Part shown: piece after piece, positions 1,459-25,500 of the stretch
Numbering within the stretch: position 1 is the first letter of the stretch
Layout of the letters: every line of letters starts with the position of its first letter
IMG/VR virus record: IMGVR_UViG_3300037427_003387
Span: 1 to 29,900 of that record
Direction: 5' to 3' (one strand)
From: a virus
Lineage: Duplodnaviria > Caudoviricetes
Length of the DNA stretch: 29,900 nt
Notes under the pieces: generated by a model
Database searches by the model: none
Seen by the model: only the letters and a program-made list of their open reading frames with translations
Told to the model about the DNA's origin: nothing
Made by a program: the position numbers and the translations under genes

Positions 1459-2940
1459 CTAGACTACCGTTAAGTTTCCTACCATTGCTGGATGTAATGT
1501 GCACTGGTAAACATAAGTTGTACCAGCAGCAAGTGATTGAGGCACTGTCCAATATTGGACTCCCTGATCAGATCCACTAACACCATCTGTGACTGCTGTA
1601 CCACCAGAAGTCTGTCTTAAAGCAAGAGGGTGTGCAGATCCAGTTACATTATTTAATCTGTATGTAAATCCTCTATAAACAAATACAGTTGGGTTGTCAG
1701 TAGAGGCATTAACTCCACCACCTGCAAGTCTATATGCACCGTTACCATTAGCAGTGAAATTAATTCCAACAGCAGCAGACTCAACTGGCTCCCATGCAGT
1801 ACCATTAAAGATGATATTGTCATTCTCAGCAGGAGTACTGCTAAGATATAAATCTGCATTTACTGTTAATGTATTTGCAGTTGCAACAGTGGTTACACCC
1901 TGGCCACCTGCCACGTTAAGAGTGGAAGTTGATAGGGCAGCAGTTGTAGTACCACTATCTCCAGTGACTGTTCTAAAGACTTCCTGAACTACATTAGGTG
2001 AGTCGTTTGTAATCGTGAGATTATCTCCACTGATAGCAGTACTAACACCAGTCCCACCAACGAAGTTAATAGTAGCAGTTGCACTACCTGCGGTTTTGTT
2101 TCCTGAGTCACTGCCTATTACAGAGTATAAGTTTTGATCTGGAGCACCTAATGCTCCTGTCATGTTTATTGTGAGGGTGTCTCCTGCGATTGCAGTCGAG
2201 ATATTAGTGCCTCCCGCAACTGTAAGAACATCAGTAGGAGCACTAGCAGTAGTACTGCCAGTGTCAGCAGTGATTCCTTCAAATAAATTTTGAGTGGTTC
2301 CACCGCCACCACCACCTGATGAATCATCGTTTGCAGGTTCCCATGCAGAGTTGCCAGCATTCCATTTAATAACTTGTCCATCACTAGGTCCGCCTCCAAC
2401 GGTCATATCTACGTCGCCAAGATCACCAAGACTATGATCTTCGCCTATAATCTTCTTCCAACCACCACTGGTTGCAACTCTTGCTGTGTTATCAGCAATT
2501 ACAAGAGCAAACATACCATCATGTGTACCAGAATTTGGTAAATCACCAGTAGTAGCAAAAGAATTAGTATACTTTAACTTACCATCAGCACCGTCAATGT
2601 ATGTTAAAGCGGATCCTGTGCCACCAGCCCAGAGTTTAATATCTCCTGTGCCATTTGGTTGGACAGTTATGTCACCATCAGATGATGATATAATTTTATT
2701 ACCATTGACATCTATATCTCCAGTAAACTTACTGAAATCTCCCTCAGCAAACTGAGCACCATTCCATTTTAGAATTTGATCAGCAGCAGGAGTGCCAACA
2801 TTGATTTGTAAGTTGGTATCGTTTCCGAGATTGGTATACAATTCATCAATGACGCTATTCAATTTAATAGCACCATCTCTTAGACTGTCACCAGTCCCAT
2901 CGTTTGCCGACGATCCAATTGCTAGGGTTTGCTTTGCCAT
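1459..2940 (-). CDS. T4 gp9/gp10-family baseplate/tail-fibre connector-like protein with C-terminal cupredoxin-like domain (493 aa)
   Basis: N-terminus MAKQTLAIGSSANDGTGDSLRDGAIKLNSVIDELY matches the T4 gp9/gp10 N-terminal motif (IG...DGTGD.LR.G..K.N...ELY). Fibre-like repeats occupy the middle. The C-terminus carries H437...C480-x2-H483-x2-M486. Confidence 0.85.
   Translation of the reverse strand: MAKQTLAIGSSANDGTGDSLRDGAIKLNSVIDELYTNLGNDTNLQINVGTPAADQILKWNGAQFAEGDFSKFTGDIDVNGNKIISSSDGDITVQPNGTGDIKLWAGGTGSALTYIDGADGKLKYTNSFATTGDLPNSGTHDGMFALVIADNTARVATSGGWKKIIGEDHSLGDLGDVDMTVGGGPSDGQVIKWNAGNSAWEPANDDSSGGGGGGTTQNLFEGITADTGSTTASAPTDVLTVAGGTNISTAIAGDTLTINMTGALGAPDQNLYSVIGSDSGNKTAGSATATINFVGGTGVSTAISGDNLTITNDSPNVVQEVFRTVTGDSGTTTAALSTSTLNVAGGQGVTTVATANTLTVNADLYLSSTPAENDNIIFNGTAWEPVESAAVGINFTANGNGAYRLAGGGVNASTDNPTVFVYRGFTYRLNNVTGSAHPLALRQTSGGTAVTDGVSGSDQGVQYWTVPQSLAAGTTYVYQCTLHPAMVGNLTVV
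1462..1740 (-). other. Cupredoxin-like domain with intact type-1 copper ligands
   Basis: GSAHPLAL (His at 1630-1632) then YVYQCTLHPAMVGNLTVV (Cys 1501-1503, His 1492-1494, Met 1483-1485). The C-x2-H-x2-M spacing is that of amicyanin. Confidence 0.7.
1860..2290 (-). repeat. Three ~50-aa protein repeats in the 493-aa gene
   Basis: NLFEGITADTGSTTASAPTDVLTVAGGTNISTAIAGDTLTIN / NLYSVIGSDSGNKTAGSATATINFVGGTGVSTAISGDNLTITN / EVFRTVTGDSGTTTAALSTSTLNVAGGQGVTTVATANTLTVN; boundaries approximate. Confidence 0.85.
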
Positions 2941-2960: not shown

Positions 2961-2968
2961 TATTTAGG
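2961..2968 (-). promoter_or_regulatory. Putative T4-like late promoter core (CCTAAATA) overlapping the upstream stop codon
   Basis: Minus strand reads CAC-C-TAA-ATA-ACACTGTAACGACTACTATC-ATG. It resembles the T4 late consensus TATAAATA and lies 20 nt before the ATG at 2940. Confidence 0.55.
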
Positions 2969-4559
2969 TGCCATCGTAAGTTTGTAATGTAGAGTCCATA
3001 GTAGATGAGGTACTATCGAATCTATTATCGGTGCTACCACCACTTCCTGTGCCAGTAACTGTTAGTGTTACTGCATTAGAATCTAGTGGTGAGTTAGATG
3101 CTGCTGCTGGTGCCCCTATAGGACCAGCGATCCTACAACGATACTTGTATCCAGTCATATATGACAGGGCAGTGACTGAATACGTGTTAGTTGTTGCTCC
3201 AGTTATAGCAGCGAATGCAAATCCACCATCTGTAGATCTATACCACTGGAATGCCACTGGTCCGTCCTCTGGACTGACAAGTTTAGTAACTGTAAATGTA
3301 GCAGTTTCACCAGCATTGACAGTAGCATTTTGTGGTTGTAGTGAGAATGACAAGACAGGTAAAGGACCATCTCCAGCACCGCCTCCATCGCCTCCAGAAG
3401 CAGGTGTTTCACTAGTGAAGGTAGTATCAATAGTTTCTCTAGTCTTTAATCCAATAATAAAAGGAAACTTAGTAATATCTGTGTTAGTTTCATCTACTGT
3501 TAGGAAATATGCATAGGTACCATCCTGATATTCAGGTGTAATAGCAAATCTTCCATTGTGAATATCTAAATCACCTGTCCCTTCAGCATATTCATAGTCC
3601 TCCATGAGAGTACCAGCAGGAGGATTGTCACTTGTATTTCCATAATCAGGTCTTCCTGCAATTTCGGTGTCTCTGACAGCATAAGAAGTCCTCATTGTCC
3701 TAGTACCACTCAAATTATCGAATGGTGTGCTATATCCATACGGTCCATAGATGGGGAATCCATCAAATGATATACCAATCATCTTGGAATGACCGTCTGG
3801 GTGACGAATATTATTTCCATTATACTGAGTTGCACCATAATAGTCGTTATATGATGCCATAGATGACCCTGATTTCCAACAATCTAGGAAATGTGGGTCA
3901 TGATAGTGGTAAATTCCAGATTGCTCTGGGTGACCACCACAGTTATCCTCTCCAGAATTGACAAAACTGAGATCACCAGCAGCAACCCAACTAAAACCAG
4001 AGGGAGGATTGAGTCCACTACCAGCAGAAGGGTTAAAAATGGCAACTCCATTGCCAGCAATACCAATTTGACCTAAAGGAGTATCAAGTCTTGCATTTCT
4101 CTGGTCAAAATACTCCATTGTGCCACTAACAGGAGTAGTTGCTTGATCATCTACAATGAAATCTAGTGTTGTATCTGAAGATAACCAACACTCACCTTCA
4201 ATAGAAGTGAATGTTGTGCTCTTAAATACGAATTTTTGCTTCAATCCATCACTAAAGTTAACAAATATATGATCATCAACACGTATATCTGCTGCACCAC
4301 CAGTGAAAAGTGCTAAGTCGTTTGTGGAGATTGTTGCTCTTCTAACAAATCCGTCATGCGTATATCCAGTATTATCAAATGTGCGAGCAATTCCAAATGT
4401 TCCTCCACGGTATAAGAAGTCATGATCCCAATCCTTCTCCTGTATAGTGTTAGGGTTATTATCGTTAGGAAACGCACCAGGAATCACAGGAGCAGGGAGG
4501 GCATCCGATGCTACTGTGATTATTTTAGTTGCGTTATTGTAGGAAGCTGTTGCTGCCAT
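2964..4559 (-). CDS. YHYH-domain protein with C-terminal Ig-like domain (531 aa), probable virion protein
   Basis: Motifs IGIAGNGVAIFNP, CGGHPEQSGIYHYHDPH, HSKMIGISFDGFPIYGPYGY and DLDIHNGRF...YAYFLT...FPFIIG define YHYH. A Gly linker is followed by the Ig-like QPQNATVNAGETATFTV...FQWYRS...YKYRCRI. The tail is FDSTSSTMDSTLQTYD. Confidence 0.88.
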   Translation of the reverse strand: MAATASYNNATKIITVASDALPAPVIPGAFPNDNNPNTIQEKDWDHDFLYRGGTFGIARTFDNTGYTHDGFVRRATISTNDLALFTGGAADIRVDDHIFVNFSDGLKQKFVFKSTTFTSIEGECWLSSDTTLDFIVDDQATTPVSGTMEYFDQRNARLDTPLGQIGIAGNGVAIFNPSAGSGLNPPSGFSWVAAGDLSFVNSGEDNCGGHPEQSGIYHYHDPHFLDCWKSGSSMASYNDYYGATQYNGNNIRHPDGHSKMIGISFDGFPIYGPYGYSTPFDNLSGTRTMRTSYAVRDTEIAGRPDYGNTSDNPPAGTLMEDYEYAEGTGDLDIHNGRFAITPEYQDGTYAYFLTVDETNTDITKFPFIIGLKTRETIDTTFTSETPASGGDGGGAGDGPLPVLSFSLQPQNATVNAGETATFTVTKLVSPEDGPVAFQWYRSTDGGFAFAAITGATTNTYSVTALSYMTGYKYRCRIAGPIGAPAAASNSPLDSNAVTLTVTGTGSGGSTDNRFDSTSSTMDSTLQTYDGT

Positions 4560-4571
4560 TGTTTTTACTTT

Positions 4572-4579
4572 TATTTAGA
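4572..4579 (-). promoter_or_regulatory. Putative T4-like late promoter core (TCTAAATA) overlapping the stop codon of the giant gene
   Basis: Minus strand reads ATC-TAA-ATA-AAAGTAAAAACA-ATG. It has the same CTAAATA core as 2961-2967 and lies 12 nt before the ATG at 4559. Confidence 0.55.
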
Positions 4580-7500
4580 TGTCATCAAAGATCAGATTAG
4601 GTGTGAAGTTACTGATTACAGTAGCACCTGTCTGGACGCTTAAGATAGCGGATAGTGAGTAAACTGGAGTTGCACCAGCAGCAGTGATTGCGACTCTGTA
4701 TTCGTCACCATCGTCTGCCTGTGCTGTAGCATTTGTGTTGTATGTTGCTTGGTTAGCACCAATGATGTTGCTCCAAGTCTGTGTACCATACTCCTTCTTC
4801 TGCCACTGATAATTCATTGTTTGACCATTAGTTACCGTAGTAACGACTGTGAATGCAGCAGTATTACCTTGGTTAACAGTTACGTTAACTGGATCCTGTG
4901 TGATTGCAATTGTGCCAGGAGTGATTCCACCACCACCACCTTCTTCACCAGATGGTCCTTCGCCTGCGAGCACGTCAAATCCACCGTTAATTGGACCACC
5001 TGTAGGTGGTACGAAATCATCTGGGACTACGTTATCGATTGCAACCGTTGGTGCGGTATAACCAACACCACCAGTCTTAACATCAATACGTGTAATACCC
5101 ATCAATGCTTTAAGTTTTCCATCAAATCCTGAAGAGGAGATAACGTCAACGTTAGGACGGTCATTGTAACCATCACCAGGATTGGTTAGTACTGCGTTAG
5201 TAATCTGACCAGAGGTTATTGCTGAAATAGCATCAGCGTTTCTACCCTTAACAGATCCAGTGTATTCAAATGTGATCAGTGAGTTAGAAGACTCAATTAG
5301 AGCAACTTCTCTTGCAAATTCTTCACCCTCGATGTCAAGTAAATCGCCAGCTTCAACTGGTGGGACTACTGTTGCTGCAATAACGTCAGCGTCAGATCCA
5401 ATGTATGAGAAACCAACGAATGTTGATCCCGCACGTGGGACTTCAGCGAATATTATACGTGAACCAACGATCTCATATGCGACTCCAGGTTCCTGAATGA
5501 TACCGTTAAGTGAAACGATAATATTATTCTCAGGACGGATAGTGTTGGAAGAAACACCCTCAGTCAATGTTAAGGAGTAGAATAGTCCACTACGCTTAAG
5601 GTTGAATGAAGATCTCAATGAGTCAAACTCGAAGGAGATATCATCTAACTGACGTAACTTACCAACGTAATATCCAATGAATTCAGATCCAATCTCAGGT
5701 GCCTCAGCAAATTGTATTTTGTCAGAGAATGCAACGTAAGAAGCATTACCACCAGGAGGTTGTAGGATACCATTAACGAATGCTAACAAGTGACCAGCAG
5801 GATCAGGGAAGTATGCCTGACCATTAGAAATGGTTAGATCAAATATTGTTTGGACTCCATCAAATCCTCTGAAGTAACGATCAACTCTACCCTCTAGTGT
5901 GCGAGCAGAAGAAACACCTGCACCCCATCCAAAGTCAGACTTGAGTGACATGTTATCAAGGAATGTACCACTAGCAGACTGTACCCAGATAGTAGCAGTA
6001 ATACCTGCTTGCTCTATAGCAACCACCTGTGCGTAAGACTGATAATCAACTGCGGTGTATCCACCAACACCAGCATATATTGTTGGGAAGTTTGATCCAA
6101 TATCAATCTTACCAATATTATTACCAGCTTGTGTTAGGTCTGTTAGAGGAGCACCAACACCAACGGGGTTGATATTAGCAATCCAGAGTTTATGTGATAA
6201 TGGTGGTACAGCAGTTGCATCTTCTTCTTGATACTTGGTAACAACAGCAGTGAATCCTGGATTCTTCTGGACGGTACCTTGTAAGAGAGAAACAGTATCA
6301 CCAACGTTGAATGTATCAGAGATACCAGTATCAACAATTGCTAGTCCTAGATCTAACTCTAGAGTCTGGACACCATGTATCCACTGATTAAGTTGAAGTT
6401 GTGTACCACTAATACCCTTAATATCTAAGATGTAATCAGTAACACTACCGTAAATAATATCACCTGGGATCCATGCTTCTCCTAGAGTTTCTACATCAAT
6501 TGCAATTCTACCACCCTCATTATCTGTTAGGGATCCAGACTTACTTGAATAATTATCCATGTATGCTTCAACGGATCCAACCTTACTGAAGAACCAATCG
6601 CCTGTAGCGAATGCTCCATTCTTAACATTGATTAAGAATCTATCAGTAGGAGTACCGACTGTATGCTCTGCACCACTATCAACACCTTCAATTACATCAC
6701 CATTAGCAATGGTACCAGCAACAGTATGAAGTTTCACGAATGATACACCTGACTCACTATCAGGTTTCAACATCTGTAATACAGATCCATTATTACCAAC
6801 TGCTCCCTGTACTTGTGCTACTTCTCCATTTACAAATTGATCGTATGTTCCTGGAGTTGTCTGTGAAGCAACAGTTGGATAATGAGTAAAGAGTTTGTAA
6901 ATCTCACCTTCGTTTTGTTGAATAGTACCAATCTCAGCGTTAGCATTAGATGAGGATCCAAAGACAACATCAGCAGGATTAAATCCACCTTGTATTGGGC
7001 ATTCTGAAGGATCAGATGCGAATGTAGCAGTAGATCTTGTAATACCACTTCTTCTTTCAACTGCCAATATCTGAGATCCAGCGTTGGACTTGTCTATTTG
7101 AAGTAATCTAAATCTACCATCATGGATATATGAAGCACCGATTTCAAACCATTGGGCAGTACCAGTTAGGACATAGAAGTGCGGTTGACCAGTAAGTCCT
7201 GTCAATGAATTCTCAGATGCAGGAATGTATGTTAATACATCACCACGACGGAAGTTATTAGGACGATTAATTCTAATTCTATACTCAGCACGATCATAAC
7301 CTACATTAACTTCAGGTGTTAAACTTACTAGATCAGGATCAGTGTTATAGTCAATACCCATCTCATACTTAGTAACACGGTTAGTAGCATCAGTAGATGA
7401 AACGAATGTTACTCTTGCCTCAGTTGGGAATTGTGACATCTCTAGAGCATACTCAATTGGGTTGAGTGAAGAGTCAATCATAAACTCAGCAGCTTCTTTA

Positions 7501-10500
7501 TTCCACTCTAATTTCTGTGGTGCTGGTATGAAGTAAACATCATATGGATCCCAACCAGTTTCAGCAAAGTCAAACAATACACTCTTACTATATTCACGTA
7601 TTCTTGCTAGACAGAATAGGAGATGAGTCCTTGTTACATTCTGGAATGCAATGAAGTTACCTTCACCATCAAACCAGTTTTGTGATAATCTAAATGATCC
7701 AGAATTACCAGAGGTTACCAAATCATATCTTACTGCCTTAATAACATCATTAGCGAAATCAATAGTTAAGTTAGTAGTTGGATAATTTGTTTGAGTCTCA
7801 GCGAATGCTCTACCAGCAATTGCTTGCTGATTGAAGAGAATCATATTAGCAATTCTCTTATTGTTATTTTCTCCCTTACCAAGTGCATCAGTAAAGAAGT
7901 CCATCAATGTATCAATCGCTGATGTTACGTTATAACATGTACCTTCTTGGTAATCAGCATTGCTATTGTATGGGAATGTCTTGGTTATTCCACTAAGAGC
8001 ATTGCCGTTGCCATTTGCTGCATCACTAATAGTATCAATGAATATATCAGCTAATGTATTAATACCAGCAGCAGTTTCAGCACATGTTATATTCCATGTA
8101 CCTTGATCATCTTGACCACCATTTGAGAAGTCATAGGTAACATCAACATCTCTAATAACAACATCTGGTGTATACTTGACGGGCCAAACAATTGGCATAT
8201 CGTATGATCTAAGTGCAACGTTATTAGGATTGCTAATAGCATCCGTTACTAACTGCATTAATGTACCAATCTGAGATTCTACATTAGCACCTTCATTACC
8301 TGTATATTGAGTTGAAACTCTACGTGCACGATAGTATGATAGATCTGTCCTGAGTGGATATGCATAAGATAGTACTGACTGGACAGGCATTATCTTACCG
8401 TCAGCGTAATCTGTCACACGAGGATATGTGTGGTTAGTAGCATTACTATCTTGACTACATGTGAATGTTAGTCCACCAGTATCAATCGTTACAGCATCAT
8501 CTGTGCGTAATGCATGACCAGCAACAGTTAACGTTAGTTGACCTGTAGTTGGCTCATAGTATGCATCCGTAGGAGTTAATGTTGTGCCATCGTTGACATT
8601 AGTAATACAATTAGATGCAGCACTTACAAAGTTATGCTTATAGTTACCACCCTGTATAATACATCCAGAGTTTGCACTCACGAATGTGTGCTGGAATGTT
8701 TTACCAGCAGGTGATACACCTACGTTAATTCTTATCTTACCATTCTGTATTCTAATTCCTTTCTCAATACATGACTTAAATGTATGATTTCCTAGGAATG
8801 TTGATGGGACACCTTTAAGTACTTGGACATCAAATTGAGTTGTAGTTACATTAGATACTGCCAACCATTCATTACTTGCATGGTCTGTAGCACGAGGATA
8901 TAAGTGCTCAGTACGGTGAGCATCTAGATCACATGTAAATGCTAAGGCATGATCTTTTATGTAAATGTAATCATTTGCTTTCCATATACCATTCTCCTTA
9001 GCAGAGATAAAGGTATGTTGATAATTACCACCACCTATAACAGCACCAGGTAATGCACTATAGAATGAATGATCATAAAGATTATTTGAAGCAGCAATAT
9101 TTACATCAACTGTAATCCAACCACTCTGTCTGTGTAGAGAGTTATTCTTAAATACCTCGAATGTATGAGTGTGGTTACCACCAGCAGTAATGGCACCTGA
9201 AGTAGCAGAAGCAAATCTGTGTGTATGGTTACCAGCAACAGTAGATCCTACATTAACAGTGAATGTAGAATTCTTCTTCTCTAATCCTTCAGAAACAGCA
9301 CTTACATATGCGTGTGTATATTCACCACCACCTCTAACTGTGCCTCTAATGATTGCACCAGTAGCAGCAGATTCAAATTGGTGAGTTGTAGTATTAGAAG
9401 AAACTCCTACGTTAACATCAAATGTATTTGTCTGCTTATTAGTGATTGTTAACCAGTCACCAGAAGCAGGGTCTTGTCTTCTAGGATAAGCATGATCACT
9501 TGCAAAACTATCTTCCTGACACTGGAATACAATAGACTCATTCATTATCTGAACCTTATCACCATTCTCAAATGGGTGACCGTTGAGTGTCAATGTTAAT
9601 ATACCTGTACCTGGAGCATATGCTGCACTTGATGGAGTAAAGGCATTTTCAGATCTTACAAATTGATGAAGTGTAGTGTTACTTGACTTACCAACATGTA
9701 CTGTAATTGTCTTAGCAGTAGCAGAAAGGATAGGGATAGACTCATTGTAATATGGGTCATCAGCAGTAGCACCACCGTTACCATTAGCACGAGGATACTT
9801 ATGCTCACTACCAAAGTTATCTGCCTGACACTTGAATACTAGTGACTCTTCCTCAATATAGACTGCTTCAGATGCAACCTTAAGTCCATTAGTACCAGCA
9901 GACACAAATGTGTGTGGTGAAGTTACAGACTGAGGAGCAGAAGATAGGACTTGGACATCAAATGTATCATCAGTGATATTTGTAATATCTAACCATCTAT
10001 CACTTGCATAGTCAGTAGATCTTGGGTATGTGTGATTGTCAGTAGGATTATCAGCATTAGCAATACCCACTTGGACATCAATTGTAGTTGCTTGTGGATT
10101 CAATACTGCAAGTTGCTGCCCAGATGCAGGGTCAGTTGCACGTGGATATGCGTGGTTTGTTGCATTATTATCAGCATCACAAGTAAACGTTACACCACCA
10201 TTAGCAATGGTAACTGTATTTGAAGTTGTTAAACTATGTGATCCAATTTCCAAGGTCATCACACCTGTGGTTGGATTATAAGTTGTGCCAGAAGCAGCTG
10301 TGTATGTGCTACTACCATCATTAACAGCATTGTTAACACCACTTACAAATGCGTGGGTGCCAGTAGATGCAGCACAATTAAATGTTATGGAGTTATCGTC
10401 AAACTTAACTCTGTCTCCGATGACCAATCCATGACCAACTACTGTCGATGTTAATATACCAGTTGTAGGATTATATGCAGCATTAGTAATTGTATGCTCT

Positions 10501-13500
10501 GATCCACCGTTAAAGTTATGATCACCTATAGTCAACACCATATCACCTGTAGTAGGCTCATATGTTGCAGCAGAAACTAGGTAGTTAGCACGAGGTGTCT
10601 TACCAACTTGGACGGTAAAATCATTACCAGAAACACCAGAAACTTCTAACCATCTATGTGATGCATAATCAGTTGGTCTAGGATAAGAATGATTAGATGC
10701 ATTATTATCCATGTCACAGGTCATTACTAGAGAATGATCAGCGATTCTTATATGGTCACCATTTGCAAATGGGTTGTTAGCAACTGTTAGTGTTAATACA
10801 CCAGTAGCAGCATTATATGCAGCACCAGTTGCTGAGTACTTAGCATGACCTACTGCCTTAATTTCAATAGCATGATCGTATGCTCTATCTCTCTTCGCCT
10901 TAAGTCCGTTATTAGCAAATGATTGGAAACTGTGTGTGAATGATCCACCAGATCTGATTGATCCTCTCTTAACAGCACCAACTACTGCTCTCTTAAATGT
11001 ATGAATAGAAGTGTTGGTAGAAGGAATAGTATCTAATACTTGTACTTGGAATGTATCGTTAGTAACATTCTGAAGTGTCAACCACTTATTACTTGCTGGA
11101 TCACCATGTCTAGGATAAGCATGCTCAGTTGCATGATCATCTTTACCACATGTGAAGATCAATGAATTGTCTTCAAACATGATCTGCTCACCATTTGTCA
11201 TTCCATGACCAGCAATAGTAACAGTCATAAGACCAGTACCACCACTGTATGAAATTGCGGTTGGAGTAACTCCGACAGCAGGTTTGAATACGTGAGTTGT
11301 AGTGTTAGAAGATGCACCAACGTTAACAGTAATGGTACTATCATCAACAGCAGTTACAGAAACAGCATCTTGATATGCTGGGTCGTCACCAGATGCACCA
11401 CTCTCTCCATTTGCACGAGGATAGAAGTGATCAGTTTGATAGTTATCTAATCCACAAGTAAAGCAGAATGCTTTATGGTTAATGTATACGCTGTGAGCAG
11501 TTGTAATACCGTGGTCAGGACCAACAGTGATTACCATTACACCTGTATTAGGATTGTAATCTACATTCTGAGGATCGAAACTCTTAAACTCAGACTTACC
11601 AACAAAGATCTTGTATGTGTTAGCATCGATATACTCGATAGGCTTCCACTTACCGCTAATAGGATCAGAAGATCTAGGATAAGTCTTATCACTGGTACTT
11701 CCGTCCATTGTGCAACGCAAGGTTATTGCATTGTCATTAATCTTAACAAGTGATCCTTCATCCAATCCATGAGCATTAGAAGTAATTGTTAAGTAACCTG
11801 TTACTCCATCGAATACAGCATTTGTTGGAGTGAAACTATCTTCAGTAGATCTTGGATATGCATGTGTAGATCCATAAGAGTCTTGACTACACTCCATTGT
11901 GATTCCACCAGCAGCAATCTGGACGCTCTGACCAACCTTAAGTGGATGAGTACCAACAGTGATTTCCATATCACCTGTAGTAGGCTCGTATGATGCATTA
12001 GTTGGTGTGTAACTAACAGCAGCAGTTGTGCCTACGTTAACATCAAAACCATTCTGAGATACATTAGAAATCTGTACCCACTTACCACTGATAGGATCAG
12101 TGCCTCTAGGATATGCATGAGTACTGGAATCGTTATCCATGTCACAAGACATATCTAAAGCATAATCATCAATCTTAATGTAATCTCCATTAGAGAATCC
12201 ATGATTTCCTAATGTCATTGCCAAGACACCTGTGCTTGGTGTGTAGGTAGCACCAGTTGGTGTCCATCTTGTTACACCATCATCAATGATTCTAAGTGAA
12301 TTATTATATGCAGGATCAGTTGTCCTTGGATATGAATGAGTGGTATTATTACCATCCATTGTGCAAGTAAATGTTATAGCATTCTCAGGAAGTTTGATGC
12401 TGTCATTACCTTTCATTAAGGTAGCAACAGTTATACTCTTAGGTCTAGCAGATACAAACGCATGAGTTGTAGTATTTGTAGATGGAATATTGAATAAGAC
12501 TTGGACATCAAATGTATCCTTAGTGACATTATTAACTGTCATCCACTCATCACTAAATGGGTCAGATGCCCTAGGATATGAGTGATTAGTCTGATCACTA
12601 TCTTGATCACATGTGAATGTTACGAATCCATCCTCTACCTTAATTCTGCTGCCATTCTTAAGACCGTGGTCAGCAACAGTCAATGTCATAATACCTGTAG
12701 AAGGAATATATGCAGCATTGGTTGGTGTTAACTGTGCAGGAGCAACAAACTTATGCTTGTAATTACCACCAGTAGCAACTGTTGCTCTGACAATAGCACC
12801 TGTTAGAGCACTCTTAAATGTATGAAGAGTTACGTTAGTTGATGGGATATTCTCAAGTACATGCACATCAAAGGTATCATCAGTGCAATTTGATATAGTT
12901 AACCACTTATTGTTTACTGGGTCGGATGTCCTTGGATATGAGTGGTTAGTAGCATTAGCATCCTTTAAGCATGTGAATACAAGTGAATTAGTATTAATCT
13001 TAATACTCTCTCCATCCAGGAATCCATGATTAGGTACTGTAAGAGTCATCCAACCTGTTGTTGGATTGTAGTTGGCACCTGTTGGTGTGTATGCTTCAGT
13101 TGATGGAATGAATGTATGATTATAAGCACCACCAGATCTTAGAGCATTGGAAACAGCACTCTGGAATACATGGGTTGTTGTATTGGAAATTTGACCATCA
13201 CCAACATCCAATGTTATAGATCCAGTCTGTCTATGTAATGAATTGTTTTCACAAGATACAAATGTATGATCGTAAACATCATTAACACCAGACTTACCAA
13301 CATGGACAGTAAAACTAGTATTACTTACATTAGAAATAGGTAACCAATGTCCAAATGTAGGATCTGTCTTTCTAGGATATGTGTGGTTAGTAGCGTTATT
13401 GTCTTTAGTGCACTGTAATGTAATAGCATTCTCATCAAACATTACAAAGTCATTTGCCTTCCAAACAGCATTAGATGCCACAGATTGAAGCACATGAGTT

Positions 13501-16500
13501 GTAGTGTTAGAGATAGCACCTTCACCTTGGAAGTTACCAACGTTAACATCGAATGAATTACTACCAACATTAAATGCTTTTAACCACGTGCCACTAGCAG
13601 GGTCAGATGATCTTGGATATGCATGATCTGATGCTTGACTATCTTCATCACAACGGAATGTAAATCCACCATCAGCAAGGAGTAACATATCACCATTCTT
13701 AACGCTATGACCATTGAGGTTAATTCTCATGGTACCTGTAGCAGGATAGAATGTAGCACCAGTTGGTGACATTGTGCTATGGTTGCCGAAGCTGTTACTC
13801 ATAGTAACTACCATAGTACCAGCAGTAGGATTATACTGGACGTTAGTTGGACTATGATCTGTCTTACCTACTTCGTGGATAGGAATATTTGTATCATAGA
13901 AGTAATCCTTCTTATGTGTAATACAGTTTGTAGCAGCAGGAGCAACAAAACTATGGATAGTAGTATTTGTTGATGGAATTACATCTAATACTTCAACATC
14001 GAAAGTATTCTGTGTAACATCGTGAATCATCATCCACTTACCACTGATAGGATCAGAAGATCTTGGGTATGTGTGGTTGGTTGCATCAGCATCCTTCTTA
14101 CATGTGAATGTTAGAGAGTTATCAGCAATCTTGATGTAAGAGTATTGAATGAATCCATGATTAGGTACTGTAAATTTAATATGACCTATATTTGGATCAT
14201 ATGAAACGTCTGTAGGTGTGTGAGATGTTGTAGCAGATCTTGGATAAGCATGATTGCTTGATTGTCCATCTTGATCACATCTAAATGTGATTGCATTATC
14301 TGCCAATCTAACACTATCACCAGCATGACGTAAACAATCAACAGTAGAAGTTGAGTAAGTATGATCATAAACACCACCACTTACAATCTGTGCTCTAGTA
14401 ATACAGTTACCTACAGCACTAGAGAATAGGTGAGTTGTTGTATTACTCTGAGGTATATCTGTGTTAACAGTAACATCGAATGTGTCAGCAGTTACATTAG
14501 AAATCTTTAACCATGATCCAGAAGCAGGGTCACCAGGACGAGGATAAGCATGAGTAGTCTGATGATCATCCATAGCACATGTTAATAATATGCCATAATC
14601 ATCAATCTTAATCTGGTCACCATTTTCCATACCATGACCAACAACGGTTACTGTCATAACACCTGTAGTAGGATTATGATTAACATTTGTTGGGGTCATT
14701 CCACTATTAGGAACGAAGGTGTGTGCACTTAGATCTGATATAGCACCATCACCAACGTTAAGGGTAATAGTAGTATCTGTTGCAGATTGGATCTGAATAT
14801 TCTTATTGTAGAATGGATCATCACCAGTAGCACCACCTTGACCATCAGCACGAGGATAAGCATGGGTGCTATTATTAGCATCCAAGAAACATGTGAATAC
14901 TATAGATTCAGTTGCTAACCTTACACTATGACCAACCTTAAGATTGTGGTTACCAATAGTTGCAACCAGCACACCACTAGAAGGATTAAATGTAGCAGAG
15001 CTTATTGTGAATGGAATAGCAGGTGTCTTACCTACATGGACATCAAATGAATCCTTAGATACATTACGGACATCCATCCACTTACCACTCATCTGATCAG
15101 ATGACCTAGGATAAGCATGTACTGTTGCATGGTTATCCATTGAGCAAGTGAAACTTACTCCACCATCAGCAATCTTAACAAAGTCACCTTCAGCAAAGTT
15201 ATGGTCTGCAACGGTTACTCTCATCAAACCAGTTTCACCGTTATACTCACCACCAGAAACGCTATGAATGCTAGACTGACGGAAATTAAACTTCCTGTCT
15301 GTGGTTAATACTAACTTACCATCACTACCAGTAAATGTAGCACCAATGATGTCATAGTTAACTGTTGGTGTAGTACCTACGTTAACCGTAATAGAATCTG
15401 AAGTAACAGCAGTAATTCCTATTGGCTCATTGTGTGTTGGGTCAACAGGTCTTGGATAACTATGCTTAGTCTTGTGATCATCCATGTCACAAGTAAATGT
15501 CAATGACTGTTGTGACAGTTTAATATTTGTGCCGACTGCTAGATCGTGTGATCCAATGAATAATTGAAGAGCACCAGTAGTAGAATTAAATGTAGCAGAA
15601 GTAGGTGTGAAACCTTTGATTGGAGATGGACCAACATTAACAGTGAATGTACCACCTTCTATATCAGTCTCAACAACTTCTAACCACTCACGAGTAGCAG
15701 GATCGGTTGCTCTTGGATAAACATGATCACTATAGTGATTATCCATTGAGCAAGTAAATGTCATGCTATTCTGCATGATCTGAATCTGCTCACCTTTAAC
15801 AATCTTATGTCCAGGTACTGTTAGTTTTAACCAACCTGTATCAGCAGTATATTCTGCATAGGTAGCAACATGGGTAGAAGCACCAACAAAACGATGCTGA
15901 CCGATGTTCATTTCTAACTCACCAGTATTCTGATCGTAAGTAGCATTAGAAACATCATACTCAACTTTAGGAGTAGATCCTACATTAACAGTGAAGATAT
16001 CATTATTGACAACAGACTCAACTAATAACCATTGATCACCAGCAGGGTCTTTCTGTCTAGGATAACCGTGCTTAGATTGATGATTATCTTGTGCACAAGT
16101 AAAGATTAAAGATCCATTTTCTATTCTTACTTGATCACCAGTCTTAAATCCATGATCATCAACAGTTAATGTTAATACACCACTATCAGGATCGTATGCT
16201 GAATCAGTAGCAGTATGAGTTGTATGATCTGACATTCCATGATTAGGAACTGTCAGAGTCATAATACCTGAATCTGGTTTGTAAGTTGCAGCAGTTGCCT
16301 TATGATCAACACTATAAGTCTCTAATACTTCAACAGCAGTATTACCAGCAGGGTCACCAGACCGAGGGTAAGTATGAGTTGTAGCGTTAGCATCTTGGTC
16401 GCATGTAAAACTTATAGAATTGGTTGCTAATCTAAGGAATGTACCTTCTGTATGATTATGTGAACCAACATTCATTATTAGATCACCAGTGCTGGAATCA

Positions 16501-19500
16501 TATGCAGCATGGGTGCAGTCATACTTGATAGTAGGAGCAGGACCAACATTAATTGTAAATGTGTTAATTGTAGAAGGCTCACCAGCACAGATAGAAGTAC
16601 CACCTTGGACACCATATCCAGAGTAATCTGATCCAGTCCATCTTCCAGGATCTGTATCAAGACCTGTATATCCACCACCTTGTGTTTCAGCAGTACCAAC
16701 AGATACACCGTCAATCCATAATTGGACTTTACCTTTACCAGAACCTTGGTTACCACCAACGTTGATCTGCCATACTAATTCATGGTCACCATCATCAAAG
16801 TATGCACCCAAAGTGCTGATCTGTAGATCAAGCATTGCCATTGCAGTTTCAGTATGACCCGCACCACCAGCATATGCATTAGCACCATTACCAGCACGAA
16901 GTCTTAAATATGTGCCATTATCTCTAACACCTATCCATGAACCAGCACCAGTACCACCTGATTCCCAGATGACACCATCAATAGGATTGGATGCTAATTT
17001 AACAATACAACGGAATACTGCATCCTCAGTACCTACTAAACCAGTGGCACTATCAGTTGTAGAAATCTTATCTTCACCAGCTTTGAATGATCTGGTAATA
17101 ATATTATTAGATTCACCCTCTATTAATCCATCCTCATCTGAGTTGAATAGTGAAGTTGTAGGTCTTGGGACAGCATCATAGAATCTCTGATCTACAGTCC
17201 AACCAGCATTATTACTGATTACCTGACCCTTCATCGCACGAATTGCATATTCCTTCGCTTTGTTAATAATCCAGTTAGTCTCAGCAGCAGCGTTAGTAAC
17301 ATGATCTAAGTTACCTGAGTAGTTTGTATAGAACTCAGATGCATACTGAAGCATATTAGTACCACCATACTTGAGGTTGAATACCATCGCTCTAAGTATG
17401 TCAGTAACGTCATGGACGCAGTTAACAGGACCACCAGGAATTGCTAAGTTTGGATATTGCACTAAACCAGCAGCAACTGCTTGCTCTGCAACGTATCTGA
17501 TGTTTCCATCAATAGCATCACCACACTGAGCAAATAGAAGGTCTTTAGGATTCTGATTGTAACTCTGTACTGGTTTTGATTGTATTGTTTCTGACATATC
17601 ATAATCTCTACCAAATGCATTACGCATTGTGCAGGTCAAGATATCTCTTAAAATCTTAACTACAGTTATAGATGCTTCCCACTCAGTCTCAATATGCTTA
17701 AGTGAATCGTCTTCTGTCTCAACATATAATGCAGCAGCATCCCATACTTTCTCGTTACAATTCATACGCAAGTCATGAACCATAGCTTCGATCATGTCTA
17801 AAACATCATCTTCACAATTAACATGACCACCAGGAATGTTTAGAGTCTCATACTTGGAAAGGTCATTCATTATGCTGACACATTCCCTAGCGATGACTGC
17901 TCTGTTATTCCAGATCATATTAGCAGCATCAAGATATCTGTCGTTATTTGCTCTTTGAATATTATTAGGATATCCTTCAGAGTCCTTAACGATTGTAGAA
18001 TCTCTATATGCTGTTTTACTAGTCCACTGAGGGGCATAGTATTCTTCATGTGCCCATGCAGGAGCATTCAATGCATTACCATCATTATCTAATAGTGAAG
18101 AAGGAACTTCACCAGGAGACATTAGAAGGTTATTAACTGCCTTCATAGCAAGCATACTAGTATATTCAAATGCATCATTTAATGCACTTAGCTCATGCTC
18201 AACATGAATTATATTATCTTGACTGTCAAGATACTTGTCTATAGCAGATTGTACGTTATAGGTACCACCAGTTACTAAGTCAGCAATTACAGCAGGAATG
18301 ATATATCTCTTAATATCATTCCTACACCCTGACGCTCCAGTACCAGGAATTTCAAGGAAGTCAAAGACTACACTATCAATAGTTGCCTGATACTTATTCT
18401 GCACATATCCTTCTACTTCTTCAGCAATATAATCTCTATTCTTCCAAAGTTGGAATCCACCTTCTCTGAATCTCTGATCGTTAGGTGCAATAACCTTAAG
18501 AAGATCAGTCATCAAAGTATCAACTTCATCTTGTACTGCCTGTGATGCAGGAGATGAGAAGTTATTAGGTATTCTATATCTTGTAGTATATGTTCCTGTT
18601 AGAGTTGTACTAGTTGTAGTTATTATTTCCTTAGTAAGTTTTGCTACTTCATTCCAAACATATAGAGATTGTAGAATCTCTTCTCCAATGAAATCTAACT
18701 TACCACTAACTGTTAAATATGTCCTTGCAGTATAGATGGTGTGATAGTTACCACCTTCTCTAAGGTCTTTGATTAGAGCACCAAGGATATAGTCCTTAGT
18801 ATCTCTGATACATGTATCAGTACCACCATAGCTGTTTTCACCAGGGACATCACCACGAATAGTGAAGTCACTAAATGCTGCCTTCATTCTACCTACAGCT
18901 TCTTCAGCAATGTAAGCACCGTTAAGGTCAATGATGTCAGCACAGTCTCTATAGTCCTGACGACCTAGATCAATTTCCTCAGCAATGATTGCTAAGTTAG
19001 CATAGTCGATTACTTTAGAAGTTGCAGAAGATGATCTCTGACCACTATACTTAGCATATACTTCTTCAGTAGATAGTATAAATGGTGCTTCCCCATCTAG
19101 ACCAAATACAATGTTAGCATCAGTAAAGTCTGGATTAGTAGGTGAAGTGAATCCCGTTGTGTAATCACCAACACCCTTCTTAACAATAACGTTATCTACA
19201 TGTCCTGACCAATGGTTAGCACCGTTAAAGTCTTGACCAACATATAGAGCAGCATATAGGTAATCGTTGTTATCAACATAGTTACCACCAAGTTGAGCAC
19301 CATTTACATACAACTGAGTAACATTATCCTTTCTGGAGACAGCAATGTGCATCCATGAACCAGTTGTTGTAACTACGTTACCACTGCTAAGAAGTAAAGT
19401 TGTGCCATTATAAACCTTAATTGCTTGGACATCTTGGACAATTCTCAATCCCTGAGAAGCACTTAAACGACGGAAGTCAAATAAAGTCTGAAGAGTTGTA

Positions 19501-22500
19501 TTTACAGCAGGACGTATCCAACCTTCAATTGTGAAGTCTCCAGTACCTAATTCGTAATCTGTAGATGCAGGACTACTTAATGATCCATTTGAAGGAATAT
19601 AGATGGATTTCGATCCACTCAATTCTGCTTTCTTAACAATTACACTTTGAGTGCAATTTGTGTAAGTTAAAGTGGAATTAGTGATATATTCATCAGCAGT
19701 GAATGTACCAGTAATAGGTCCAGCGAATAACCACTTAAGACCAGAATTAACTCCAATTGCGGAGAATAGTGCTCCAGAAGACATACCCTTGATTTGGTCA
19801 CCAGTTATGAATAAACCAGTTGACTTATCCTTATAACCAATCTTAGTTGTCCTGATTGTTTCAGAATCTTGGAATGTGCCGTCTGTAATAGATGCAATTG
19901 CATTAACGTTAGCTAAAGTACCTGCTGTCATTGCAGTTGTAGCAATGGATTTCAAGGTATCGATAGAAGATTTAACGTTAGCACAGTTACCAATATTTTG
20001 ATTATTACCAGATGCATAGTTTGCATCGTATCTATTAGCAGGAGCAACACCACCACTGTAAGTAGTAGGATCATTAAGGTTATAACCAACCCCACTCATA
20101 TCCTTCCAATACATTAGGTTATTGATTGCACTATGCATCAATGTACCAGCAGTTGTAAAGGCATGGACTGCTTCTGCTTCTTCACCAACAATACCGTTAG
20201 TTAGAGGGACACCAGCATCATCGAAGAATTTTTTAGTGAATTCAACTGTATTATAGTTACCACCAGATCCAACATCAGCAGCGATAGAATCAATGAAATA
20301 ACCAAGGTCTCTTCTGCACTTTTCTTGATGAGGTGAGTATGTACCAACACTTTCAGAAGGAAGGTCAGCTAGACTTGCATTATTCAATGCCTCATCAATA
20401 AACTCATGTAGAGTTGTAATTGCTGCCTGAACGTCTGAGCAGTTGTCAACACCATCATTTGCAGCGTTAGATCCAGCAGTACCGTAAGCATCTCCAGGTG
20501 AAGGGTCAGCAGTGATTGTAAGGTCTTGATATGCCGTCCAAGAGTCTCCAGAGTTAACAGCACTAACTGTACCTGAATATTGGTTAGCAATTGCTTCTTT
20601 CATCCTATCCCTTGCTTTTTCAAAGGCATAACGTGTTTCAGCAGATTGAGCACTTACATAAGTGAATGTTCCGTTAGTATCGAAGAATTGTTGAGTAAAC
20701 TTACGAGCATATCGGTTTCCACCTGCATAGATGTCTATAGAGATTGCATCGACTAAAAATTCGATATCTCGCTTACATTTGGCATCTGAAGGAATTGAAG
20801 AAGAAGGATATTGGGTTTTCATGTCATCAAACGCCATTCCAGCGATTAATGCCTTATTCTTCTGAATCATCCTGTAAGCGTCTTTAAAACGACTCCAGTT
20901 GTTAGTAATAACGTCAGATGGGAAATAGTAGTCTGGATAGTCAATTGCAATACTTGCTTCAGCGAAATCGATGATTTCATCCTTATTATTCAGGATATTG
21001 CGTTTTCCATCAAGATATCTGTTTGCAGCAATTCCGTGGAAGGTAGATACTGGATTTCCGTAGAATGCCTTCTTATTACGGATAGTCATACCATCAGTAA
21101 GCACACCACCAGTCAATTGACTGTAAGTAACCTCAGTAGTCCTAACTTCTTCAAAATTCAAGAAGTCAGCGTTAATTCTATTCTCAGAATCATAAAGTTT
21201 GGTTGGAGTAATAGAAGACTTGGAAATATCATCTAGGATGACATTAGGGTTAGTTAGACTAACTAGACGCTCAAATAATAGTCCGAAGAAGGTAGTTCCC
21301 TTGTTAATGATTAATTCTTCAACAACTTCATTATTAATAGGATCAGTGTAAGGTGCGATGTATGTAATCTGGCCTGCAATCTTAGATGAGGCAGAATAAA
21401 TGTACTCATTGAGTCTAAAGTCAAAGATACCAGTTTCAAACCTAGGAGTACCTGAAGTCTTACTTACAACCACTCTATCGGTTATAGCACCTTGTGTATC
21501 AACGTTAGTCTCTTCAATATAAGCAGTATCACCATCTAAGTTAGTAAGTGCTTCACCAAACTGGAATATAGTAGGACTGTTAACTAGGGTTACAGTTTCT
21601 ACTAATGCAGCAAATAATTCACCTCTCTTAATCTGCTCATTGAGATCGAAGGTACCAGTTAAGTTAATAACGTCAATATGATTAGTACCAGAATCAATAA
21701 CAGTACCAATTGTGTCACTATTTTCTCCCTGAACCTGCTGACCTAATGATGGGAAAATACCATAGTTAGATCCACCACCAGACTGATAAAGTGCAATTCT
21801 ATAGATTGGTGTTGGGGTAACTGCCATAATTCTATAGTTAACCTTAGAAGGTGGTTTAGGTGGCTCAGCAAATACTAAACTACCACCAACGATCTGATAA
21901 GAATCACCAGGAGACTGAATGATACCATTCAGAGTTATCATCAACTGGTCTTGCTTAACGATTATAGTCTCACCTTCTACAGTAACTGGGAATTGTTTCT
22001 TAATACCATCAAACTGATCTTGGATACTATCAAGTTTCTTAACGATAGAAGTTAGAATTTCCTCAGAAGAAGTTAGACGCTTCTTACGGAAAAGAACCTC
22101 AGTATTGTTGTAGTCGGTATAGATTGGTTGTGCAGCACCAAATGATGTAATCTGGTTTACATTACTATAGTTGTTAATATTAACTTTCTTAGTAAACTCA
22201 GTACCAATTCTACGTCCAGATACGTCCTTACCACCAGTCAGTTGTAACTGACCAAACATGTTGAAACCAGCAGGGTGGTTATTTTCTAATACCTGTGTTT
22301 TCCACTCTGTAATAGGAATCTCAGACTGGACAACATATGAGAAGTTCTGATAGAAGAAACTATCTTGGATCTTCTGGACAATCTCAGATGGTTTACCAAC
22401 GTCATCAATAAATCGGCCTGGTGTCTTCGTTAGGGAGCCAATATTCAGCACACCACGAGCAATAGAGAAGTTATCGATAATACCAGATGCTTTAGATATC

Positions 22501-25500
22501 TCACCTGTTACCTTCTCACCTTCTGCCCAATCACCAGTGTAATCAACGATCTTAAGAATCTTAGGTCCAATCTGCCAACCAGTGTTAGTAGAAACCTTAC
22601 CTCTTGCAGTAGAAGTCTCAGTAGCAGATCCTTGGAATACTTCCTCTCCTTCAAGGAAACGAGAAGTTTCAATAACAGCAACTGCTTTACCACCAAATAC
22701 CTCAGTTAGAAGTGTCTGTCTACCAGATCCTTGAGTCAAGAATGTGATATAAGATCCACCTTGTGCAGAAGCTAAAGTAAGACCAAATCTCAATTGATCA
22801 TTCTCTAGACCAGCTGCCTCACCAGCAATAGCATAGTATGTTTGATTTGCAACCAAACTAGTTAAACCTGCGGTACTTGGTTTTGGTAATATACCTTCTG
22901 TCGATCCAATATCATCAGATCTAAATTGGACTTCTGCACCAGTGGTTATACCATGTGGGAAGTTAAACTGTAGATAGTTGAGGTCTAAGTTAACAACGTA
23001 GTTAAATTCTGATTTTAGAGTAACCGTTGGTTCGGATGAATATCCAGCACCACTGTTTTTAATGATGATCTCACTAAGACGGTTATTCTTGACAATTGCT
23101 TCTGCATCAGCACCTGTTCCACCACCACCTTCGATTACAACAGCAGGAGTAGAAGTATATCCAGAACCTGGGTTAGTTATCTTGATCTGACTTAGTATTG
23201 ATGTATTGAAGAGTTGTAGGTTAACAGGGAATGTAATCTCTGGTTTTAAGGTATAGTCATGAGAGTAACCGAAACCAAATTCATTATTTTTCAGTCTCTT
23301 AATCTTACCAATATTACTACCTGTTAAGAATACAGATGCACCACTACCTTCTGAAGGAATAACAACTGTTACAGATCCACCAGAACCTGCAAGTGTGTTA
23401 CCTAGGATTCCAGGAATGCCATCAATATCAATAGATGCAATAGTATATCCTTTACCTGGGTCAGCTACAGAAGCACCAGTTATAGTTCCTGATCCAACCT
23501 CTGCATCAAACTCAACAGTAATGGTTGCTTTACCACCTTCACCGTCTCCAGCAATTGGTACGTCATAGTATACACCGACAGCGTATTCAGTACCTCCATC
23601 ATTAACAACAACCTTCTCAACCTGTCTGAAGGATGCAATATCACTAATGATAGGTAACTTCTGATAGAAACCACCTGGAGATACTAGTTTAATAGTATTA
23701 ATAGGTCCAACTGCTCTTACAGAAGTAGTTGAATAGAATGAATATACATTATCAAATGGGTCAGTACCAACCTCAGCATTTTGTCTCTCAGGCTCTTTAA
23801 GTAATTGGAATCTAAACTCAGTATCACTTAGTACTTCAGCTACATTAAATGTACCTTGGAATGGAGTTGTAATAACATCAATGAATGAATTAGGTCCAAC
23901 TGGAGAAGTATCACCAGTTCTAGATGGGTCAAAGTAGTATGAGATATTAGTTACATCACCCAATACAGAGAATTTAACAAATGGATATGCACTACCACCA
24001 AGAGGAATACCTGGTGTGCCAGATCTTGTAATGTTGTTAAATGAGTATTCTAGTTTATACTGGTTGTCTTGAGAGAATGATAGGTAGTAACCTAAGTTAG
24101 ATGTATCAGATACATCAAAGACATATTGATGATTTCTAGTAAACTCTAAAGTTGGGTGCTTCGCATATATGTTTACATTAGCGATAGCATTAGCATTAAA
24201 TGCAGGGTCACTTACAGCAGTTGCTCTAATACCATATGTAAATTCTCTAGATCCAATTACCTGATCGATAAAGAATGATCCATTAAATTGATCTCCACTA
24301 TATCCTTCAGAGTATACAATTTCACCTTCAACAAATCTATGAGGTGAATTAGATGTGCAATATACTAAATTAGTCCTCTGATCAGCAGTCCTTATTATAT
24401 CCTTCTGAAGACGTGCAGTAACACGAATCTTCTTAACTGATGCAAATCCAGAGATTTCTACACTCTTCTGATCATCTGCTTCAGTTATGTTAACTCCAGA
24501 TATTGAAATAACATCTTCTGGAATGTATAGCGAACCAGGTTGGATCTCTACAATCTGAACCGTATAGTTGTTACCTAGGTCATATGGAAGAGTCCTAGCA
24601 TAAGAACTAATTGCTTGTGAGGTGGATTCATGTGTCCATGTAACACCACCATCTGATACAGCACCAGTAGTATGCACAGGAGCAGTTGTACCAGATACAC
24701 CAGCACCACCAGCACCCACAACATATACATTTAACTTATGCCATACTTTTTGGCCTACAACGTATAACTGACCAGAATCCCACCCAGGCATATCACTATC
24801 AAGATACTGTGGCATTGGATATGGATGCTCAGTTAGATCAACAGTAAATTTACCTGCATCATCTATATGAATCCAGTTGATAAGACCATCACTCTGGACA
24901 CCACTTGTATGAGTTGGTGGAATTGTACCAGTAGTACCTGTGCCTTGTGCTTGATATATCTTCTTGTCATAATACGTCTGGTCACCCTGTGTAACTGATG
25001 CACCTGCTTGCCAAGGATTTTCAGGCTCTTCAACATTAAAGTATGTACCAGCAATCTGGTTTACATCTCCAACATCAGTCTTATAAAGATCAGTATCATT
25101 AAAGTTACCATATATCTTACCAACCTTATACTTGTTACCTAATCCAGGATTATACAATGAGTCAGCATTAGGGATATCTACGATAGTACCATATGCACTA
25201 ACAACTTGACCTGATAAAGTATTAGTATACTGTTGAAGTATAGACCCTTTGGTTAACGTAACATCTTGATTAAAAGTAAACTCAAGGACATTATCAATCT
25301 TAGAATATAATGCATCACGCATATAGAACTTACTAATCACATCAGCAGTAATCTTAAGTTTCTTACCTAATGGTGATGGTATTGTAGATGTCTTAGTTGC
25401 ATACTCAGTTGAGGCATTAGTAAATGTATATGTACCAGGATTCTGTGTTGCAATAACCTGAGACATATCCAATATCTGTAAACCACCTGCACCAACAATC

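Follow-up and report, generated by a model that had tools for sequence, protein, structure and literature searches.

A probable branched tree of 26 nested domains inserted in a gp7-type giant virion protein

The question raised by this locus is how a protein should be read when its repeats break off, are followed by further repeats and reappear in part thousands of residues later. The locus lies in a 29.9-kb fragment (29,900 nucleotides, nt) of the virus record IMGVR_UViG_3300037427_003387 (Duplodnaviria; Caudoviricetes), from a marine virus of cyanobacteria, and is referred to below as the window. A single minus-strand frame of 8,441 amino acids (aa) is open from the window end to nt 4575; it runs off the 5′ side of the window, so that the giant protein it encodes is 5′-truncated and has at least 8,441 aa (residue numbers are counted from nt 29900). 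Inside this frame, aa 4446-7176 (nt 16565-8373) form the tree region, which an earlier note, made from the letters alone, had parsed by hand into 26 domains nested within one another. That observation was confirmed in every detail that could be tested. The region is probably one 2,733-residue insertion of 26 nested domains of ~100 residues, likely to form a branched all-beta tree that projects from the baseplate and serves weak multivalent attachment to the host.

4575..29900, minus strand: giant virion structural protein (phrog_701 match), orthologue of cyanomyovirus 'gp7'
8373..16565, minus strand: whole 26-domain tree (aa 4446-7176)

The repeat unit and its fragments

The repeat unit has ~100 residues and is present in 26 copies in the tree region, which contains 26 YPR motifs and 26 FxC-type motifs. 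A 102-column profile was trained on 535 uninterrupted copies from the giant protein and its homologues (including the window protein's own uninterrupted copies), and the region, its ends set by the analyst, was divided into fragments by a Viterbi tokeniser that has no knowledge of a stack and may jump between any two columns at a fixed cost. Six anchors were tracked: A (TG strand pair), B (FxC), Y (YPR), W, C and E (HxF). With a jump cost of 10 bits, picked after both runs were inspected, 48 fragments cover 2,527 of the 2,731 residues and each of the six anchors is found 26 times; raising the cost to 13 bits loses five short fragments. Of the 48 fragments, ten have scores below 20 bits, the range of 49 background matches in 5,561 residues beyond the region, and their assignment depends on their filling the only gaps that are left. 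Breaks and resumptions occur at adjacent profile columns (for example, D23 breaks off at column 42 and resumes at column 43), with 0-10 unassigned residues between fragments.

Whether split or whole, every one of the 26 copies retains a G, a C, a D, YPR, another D and the E histidine. Throughout 8373-16565, the Cys, the Asp three residues on and the E-segment His are present in 26 of 26 copies, and a His before YPR in 25. One may speculate that the conserved Cys, Asp and His make up a metal site joining the B/Y and E segments, even across split halves.

DNA identity between copies is at most ~73%, and independent contigs are collinear with the window at 80-83% protein identity, which excludes a repeat-assembly artefact; with the balanced order of the fragments, the same observations rule out a simple tandem repeat.

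The balanced parse

A greedy pushdown parse of the region closes with nothing left open and yields the tree that had been drawn by hand, with a depth of 11, eight leaves and six branch nodes: D0(D1(D2(D3(D4(D5(D6(D7(D8(D9(D10)),D11,D12(D13)),D14),D15),D16(D17(D18(D19(D20)),D21(D22(D23(D24),D25))))))))). The equal, balanced segment counts and last-in-first-out order claimed in the earlier note were thus recovered with one profile, and none of 200,000 shuffles closed, whether all fragments were shuffled or only the 22 that are not A fragments. First-in-first-out (queue) pairing, failing at 10 of 22 fragments, is ruled out. When fragments stay whole, a single complete non-crossing parse exists; at the level of single tokens with free rotation there are 7,776, only one of which has as few as two circular permutants (D0 and D24).

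The trunk of the tree consists of the following domains, all on the minus strand. D2, said in the earlier note to open near 16310 and resume near 8975, is split at very nearly those positions.

C 16565-16509, E 8639-8604, ABYW 8579-8373, minus strand: D0, circular permutant
8652..16508, minus strand: D1 (ABYW 16508-16320, CE 8738-8652)
8751..16304, minus strand: D2 (A 16304-16230, BYWCE 8972-8751)
8979..16217, minus strand: D3 (ABYWC 16217-15975, E 9020-8979)
9039..15953, minus strand: D4, main fork (A 15953-15888, BYW 12416-12288, CE 9116-9039)

The pairings within D1-D4, over 2,300-2,600 aa, are the longest and are predicted solely from the unique stack parse. Two arms diverge from D4.

12432..15872, minus strand: first arm, D5 subtree (D5-D15)
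ABYWC 15872-15630, E 12758-12744, minus strand: D5
ABYWC 15611-15375, E 13118-13095, minus strand: D6
13137..15344, minus strand: D7, three-way fork (A 15344-15291, BY 14324-14235, W 13913-13863, CE 13220-13137)
15266-14325, 14222-13914 and 13856-13230, minus strand: D7 children D8(D9(D10)), D11 and D12(D13)
13091-12786 and 12731-12432, minus strand: leaves D14 and D15
9129..12263, minus strand: second arm, D16 subtree (D16-D25)
ABYWC 12263-12030, E 9173-9129, minus strand: D16
ABY 12011-11841, W 10895-10839, CE 9275-9189, minus strand: D17
11834-10899, minus strand: D18(D19(D20))
ABYWC 10838-10584, E 9323-9276, minus strand: D21
9648..10577, minus strand: D22(D23(D24))
A 10577-10497, BYWCE 9869-9648, minus strand: D22
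AB 10496-10371, YWCE 10055-9879, minus strand: D23
10358-10065, minus strand: D24, circular permutant E-ABYWC, at depth 11
9641-9345, minus strand: D25

In the six-anchor parse, D10, D14, D15, D20 and D25 are siblings of the copies that precede them. The spacing supports the placement given in the earlier note, within the E hairpin of the copy before: at all five sites the child begins 8-9 residues past the E histidine (the two intact hairpins have 19-20), and the anchor following the child is delayed by five residues (23 versus 18 four times, 31 versus 26 once). With these children inside E, the unit has six insertion ports: after A, after B, after Y, after W, after C and inside E. D9, D19 and D22 (within 9648-15011) have in common a glycine-rich extension after YPR, and each has a child in its E hairpin, which suggests that the D8, D18 and D21 subtrees are old duplicates.

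Empty alleles, gains and losses among homologues

Both flanks of the tree region were found in 23 homologues, of which 22 have 2,514-3,306 residues and 24-31 YPR motifs between the flanks, ~105 residues per copy. In the remaining homologue, P0086, the flanks (51-52% identical to those of the window) abut exactly, with a spacing of zero residues and no YPR between them. P0086 flanks were placed by local alignments; global alignment was confused by P0086's own tree. Relative to P0086, the tree region is a 2,733-aa insertion, and the contiguity of the flanks indicates that the chain leaves and re-enters a single loop and that the whole region is one insertion, as would be expected of a chain that goes out and back. 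The reciprocal allele exists as well: P0086 has a three-copy tree at aa 5408-5734, in the third helical domain, where the same loop is uninterrupted in the window. Out-and-back nesting of the tree region is strongly supported by these comparisons.

Smaller gains and losses follow the parse. Global alignments to 15 relatives contain 45 gaps of at least 30 residues (approximately five distinct events), and 19 of the 45 gaps are balanced alone. The seven relatives with at least 80% identity have 11 large gaps, of which seven correspond to complete domains or subtrees; the four that remain pair into one full set each. D23(D24) is lost as a 211-aa block in L007, and D24 is lost in L015 (a 102-aa block), L008 and L009. 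An extra copy is found inside D9 in L001, L003, L004, L006, L008, L009, L011 and P0001, an extra copy inside D11 in L015, L017, L021 and L022, and a three-copy block of ~330 aa inside D17 in P0001, L011, L019, L021 and L022. At the level of sequence, the pairing of split halves is shown by these empty alleles for D22 (L007) and D23 (L008, L009 and L015).

Recursive domain insertion has been defined by the arrangement A1-B1-C-B2-A2 (PMC13114784; this and the other papers are cited for those parts of their text that were accessible). A host domain interrupted by a complete domain is seen by comparison with P0086, L007, L015 and the L001 group, and the inserted domains are themselves hosts, with six branch nodes and a depth of 11. 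Homologous proteins can be parsed likewise, a check proposed in the earlier note: with an error-tolerant parser run at equal beam widths, 55 of 72 distinct homologous token strings (related strings, not independent trials) parse better than all 40 shuffles, and low-cost parses have 8-31 copies and depths of 4-12. In P0024, one small nest, D(D(D(D))), occurs five times in identical form within aa 1096-4755, grouped in three clusters and parsed without error, indicating that subtrees also duplicate in tandem.

Structure predictions and the fold of the unit

The nested pair D12(D13) was modelled with AlphaFold2 from 28 nested and 57 uninterrupted rows (57 of 77 candidates), giving a predicted local distance difference test score (pLDDT) of 93.1, a predicted template modelling score (pTM) of 0.86 and an almost wholly beta structure. 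The D16 subtree (10 domains, 1,053 residues) was modelled from 34 rows (the window, 14 of 18 orthologous stretches, 8 of 15 sub-blocks and 11 nested pairs), giving a pLDDT of 79.9 and a pTM of 0.48. In the subtree model, the lone segments that close D16, D17, D18 and D21 form strands, and their core blocks score pLDDT 78-90; the CE segment of D17, a strand, is ~900 residues from the opening of D17. Confidence is high for the nested pair and lower for the 10-domain subtree. The models gave neither contacts nor predicted aligned error (PAE), so that the long-range pairings are inferred.

Against a library of viral models, the unit matches models of cyanophage gp7, a long tail fibre and the neck protein gp14, with a single-domain match of 1.2 Å over 104 columns. 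The nearest named cluster in an ESM Atlas feature search is E1 FCCH-like (PF16190; score 0.92, 167 of 256 features), a lead only; a Pfam scan of four copies assigned the unit to no family, PF16190 included. Sequence searches of the PDB gave no credible match for the unit, and a carbonic anhydrase identity was rejected since the one match to it is weak (E-value 5e-4) and implausible.

Outer hosts of the tree

The tree itself appears to be inserted in a LamG-like domain, which in turn may be enclosed by three helical domains.

16578..17117, minus strand: N-terminal part of the LamG-like domain hosting the tree (29 of 30 feature matches PF13385, score 0.95)
8313..8372, minus strand: last strands of the LamG-like host, immediately following D0 (in P0086 they adjoin the N-terminal part without a break)
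17163..18473, minus strand: three helical repeat domains opening without a final helix (aa 3810, 3988 and 4123)
7878..8288, minus strand: three final-helix segments, candidate closers (aa 7205, 7273 and 7321; 6.7, -1.8 and 16.7 bits)

The LamG-like assignment is based on language-model features; the Pfam scan had no match for this host. The middle final-helix segment is weak in the window, and P0086 has the same three segments at 7, 9 and 7 bits. The LamG-like host and the three helical domains around the 11-level tree would bring the nesting to ~15 levels over three folds. Elsewhere in the window, at 19923-21020 (aa 2961-3326), copies of the helical repeat look interrupted and partly nested (a 34-column opener, then a full copy).

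Proposed folding, shape and function

Whole copies and subtrees have been inserted in-frame, recursively, at the six ports. The permutants and the linkers of 0-10 residues imply that the ends of the unit are close together, and close ends would allow in-frame copies, single domains or subtrees, to be tolerated in any loop; close termini are described as a requirement for inserted domains (PMC13114784). During synthesis, the leaves would fold first, as they emerge, and the trunk domains would be completed at the end, as many as 2,600 residues after their opening. The tree would sit on the baseplate and may project from it as a dendritic antenna, the shape suggested in the earlier note. A structural role is indicated by the phrog_701 match, the P-SSM4-like gene order and the presence of the unit in tail fibre, neck and gp7 models. 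Adhesion would be the most likely function, given the LamG-like host, the presence of the unit in tail fibres and the variability of the tree.

A bolder proposal can be made tentatively: that a lone polypeptide folds unaided into an extended 26-domain dendritic antenna, which at ~15 levels over three folds would be nested more deeply than any published natural protein met with in the literature searched; that cyanophages move subtrees between ports to vary contact with the host; and that Cys, Asp and two His form a metal clasp closing each bracket.

Several points weigh against a branched, adhesive tree on the baseplate. A balanced string records how insertions accumulated, which alone does not determine the fold. 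The AlphaFold2 confidence is consistent with the parse rather than proof of it; the pTM of the subtree is low, pLDDT falls below 50 in three stretches within residues 717-758 (the end of D24 and the resumption of D23), and D24 is in only 5 of the 34 rows. A nearest-neighbour similarity test was uninformative, with the stack partner top-ranked at 4 of 20 junctions and eight E-only junctions unscorable. Among the homologues, 17 of the 72 token strings fail to beat every shuffle, none of nine gaps is balanced in the most distant relative, P0002 (52% identity), and the distinct gap events are few. The adhesive function is putative, and T4 gp7 has been viewed as absent from cyanomyophages, with VrlC in its place (PMC7029224).

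The chain might fold as parsed with its domains packed into a compact cluster or shell that stabilises or shields the baseplate. The 0-10-residue linkers set topology and not shape, and for domains added to sheath proteins, both a stabilising effect on the virion and a contribution to adhesion have been proposed (PMC9230969). We regard such packing as unlikely, however, because the solved precedent, Si3, is elongated (150 by 50 Å; PMC10895346), and because domain number (8-31) and tree shape vary widely among relatives, unlike what would be expected of a fixed packing.

Alternatively, the insertion history may be as parsed while split halves from neighbouring chains pair with one another, a domain swapping that would produce a cross-linked mesh. 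Baseplate proteins are oligomeric, as is established for T4-type baseplates, the one core common to all copies may make halves of one type interchangeable, and the models covered single chains. Those single-chain models are nevertheless confident, and the gain and loss of subtrees at different ports among lineages would be easier to tolerate within one chain; domain swapping is accordingly considered a distinctly unlikely arrangement, somewhat more so than compact packing. That neighbouring segments re-pair locally, making circular permutants the real domains and the tree shallower, is very improbable: although free rotation permits 7,776 parses and the D24/D23 junction is the weakest part of the subtree model, the alternatives need extra permutants and broken contiguous fragments where the single parse keeps fragments whole, and within the closing run E CE E CE E there is neither an A nor a B for local pairing.

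Comparison with known systems

The closest precedent for a branched tree of self-inserted domains is Si3, an insertion in the RpoC2 (beta′) subunit of cyanobacterial RNA polymerase, built of sandwich-barrel hybrid motifs (SBHM). With eight domains in six levels, it is the complex example in a 2026 survey of 2.7 million domains (PMC13114784), and it has been solved as an elongated body of continuous and discontinuous motifs (PMC10895346). In Si3 as in the tree region, one small beta domain is inserted into itself with branching nodes, some copies are continuous while others are assembled from distant parts of the chain, and the whole is one insertion in a loop of the host. The tree region differs in having 26 domains in 11 levels (~15 when the outer hosts are counted), roughly double the survey's six-level example, which is the basis of this comparison rather than the survey maximum. 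It also differs in being part of a virion protein, in its unrelated sequence, in its six ports and two permutants, and in a topology that varies among close relatives; Si3 is a solved structure, whereas the tree is known from sequence and predicted models. Membership of the SBHM/Si3 family is not indicated, as there is no Pfam or PDB match and the host is a phage structural protein, and the likeness is one of architecture only.

Within phages, the giant protein is most like P-SSM4 gp7 (phrog_701, YP_214641.1, 7,312 aa), to which it is 56% identical over 785 aa at one end and 63% over 298 aa at the other; the profile match to phrog_701 (virion structural protein) and orthology at both ends place it among the gp7-type giant virion proteins. 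P-SSM4 gp7 (L061:6174-28112) has a nested set of its own, of 11 copies (token string parsed by eye), but the tree in the window is larger and lies inside a LamG-like domain. P-SSM4 gp7 is annotated only as a structural or baseplate protein, and no paper describing its nesting was found. Phage tail sheath proteins and flagellin also have out-and-back domains, with added domains pointing away from a conserved core, as here; they have five or more domains at most, and no branched self-insertion of such size is described in the accessible text (PMC9230969). The corresponding parts of PMC10665884 and PMC9910659 have no direct bearing on the giant protein. The earlier note knew of no description of recursion this deep. 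That stands insofar as Si3 is shallower and no phage account of such an architecture was found in the literature searched, which covers few subscription papers; deep recursion itself has a precedent in Si3, which makes the tree an extreme variant and not a new principle.

The tree offers a natural test of how trunk domains fold when synthesis separates their halves by 2,500 residues. It accounts for the scrambled-repeat alignments of giant cyanophage 'gp7' proteins and supplies a grammar for annotating them. For the design of branched proteins, a domain that tolerates insertion in six of its loops provides a ready scaffold. A branched virion appendage is predicted, visible in principle by cryo-electron tomography of a cultured phage such as P-SSM4, whose nested set makes it available for imaging.

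Gene neighbourhood and related sequences

Downstream of the giant gene, a YHYH gene is followed by a gp9-like gene and then by one for a baseplate wedge protein.

2964..4559, minus strand: YHYH-domain virion structural protein
1459..2940, minus strand: T4 gp9/10-like baseplate wedge-tail fibre connector
3..1457, minus strand: baseplate wedge subunit-like protein, 3′-truncated

On the downstream side, the one that the record covers, the order is close to that of P-SSM4 (gp25-gp6-gp7-gp9-wedge), but with the YHYH gene before the gp9-like gene. Annotation and gene order point to the baseplate as the probable location of the giant protein. Matches to the tree region come from 327 phage records, which carry the names of Synechococcus phages, Prochlorococcus phages, cyanophages or marine viruses. 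When aa 1-4441 were compared with the PDB by phmmer, there was no match to T4 gp7, and the sole match was cyanophage tailspike 7eea: aa 1698-1758 of the long frame (~nt 24627-24809) match the receptor-binding domain of this tailspike with an E-value of 2.5e-7.

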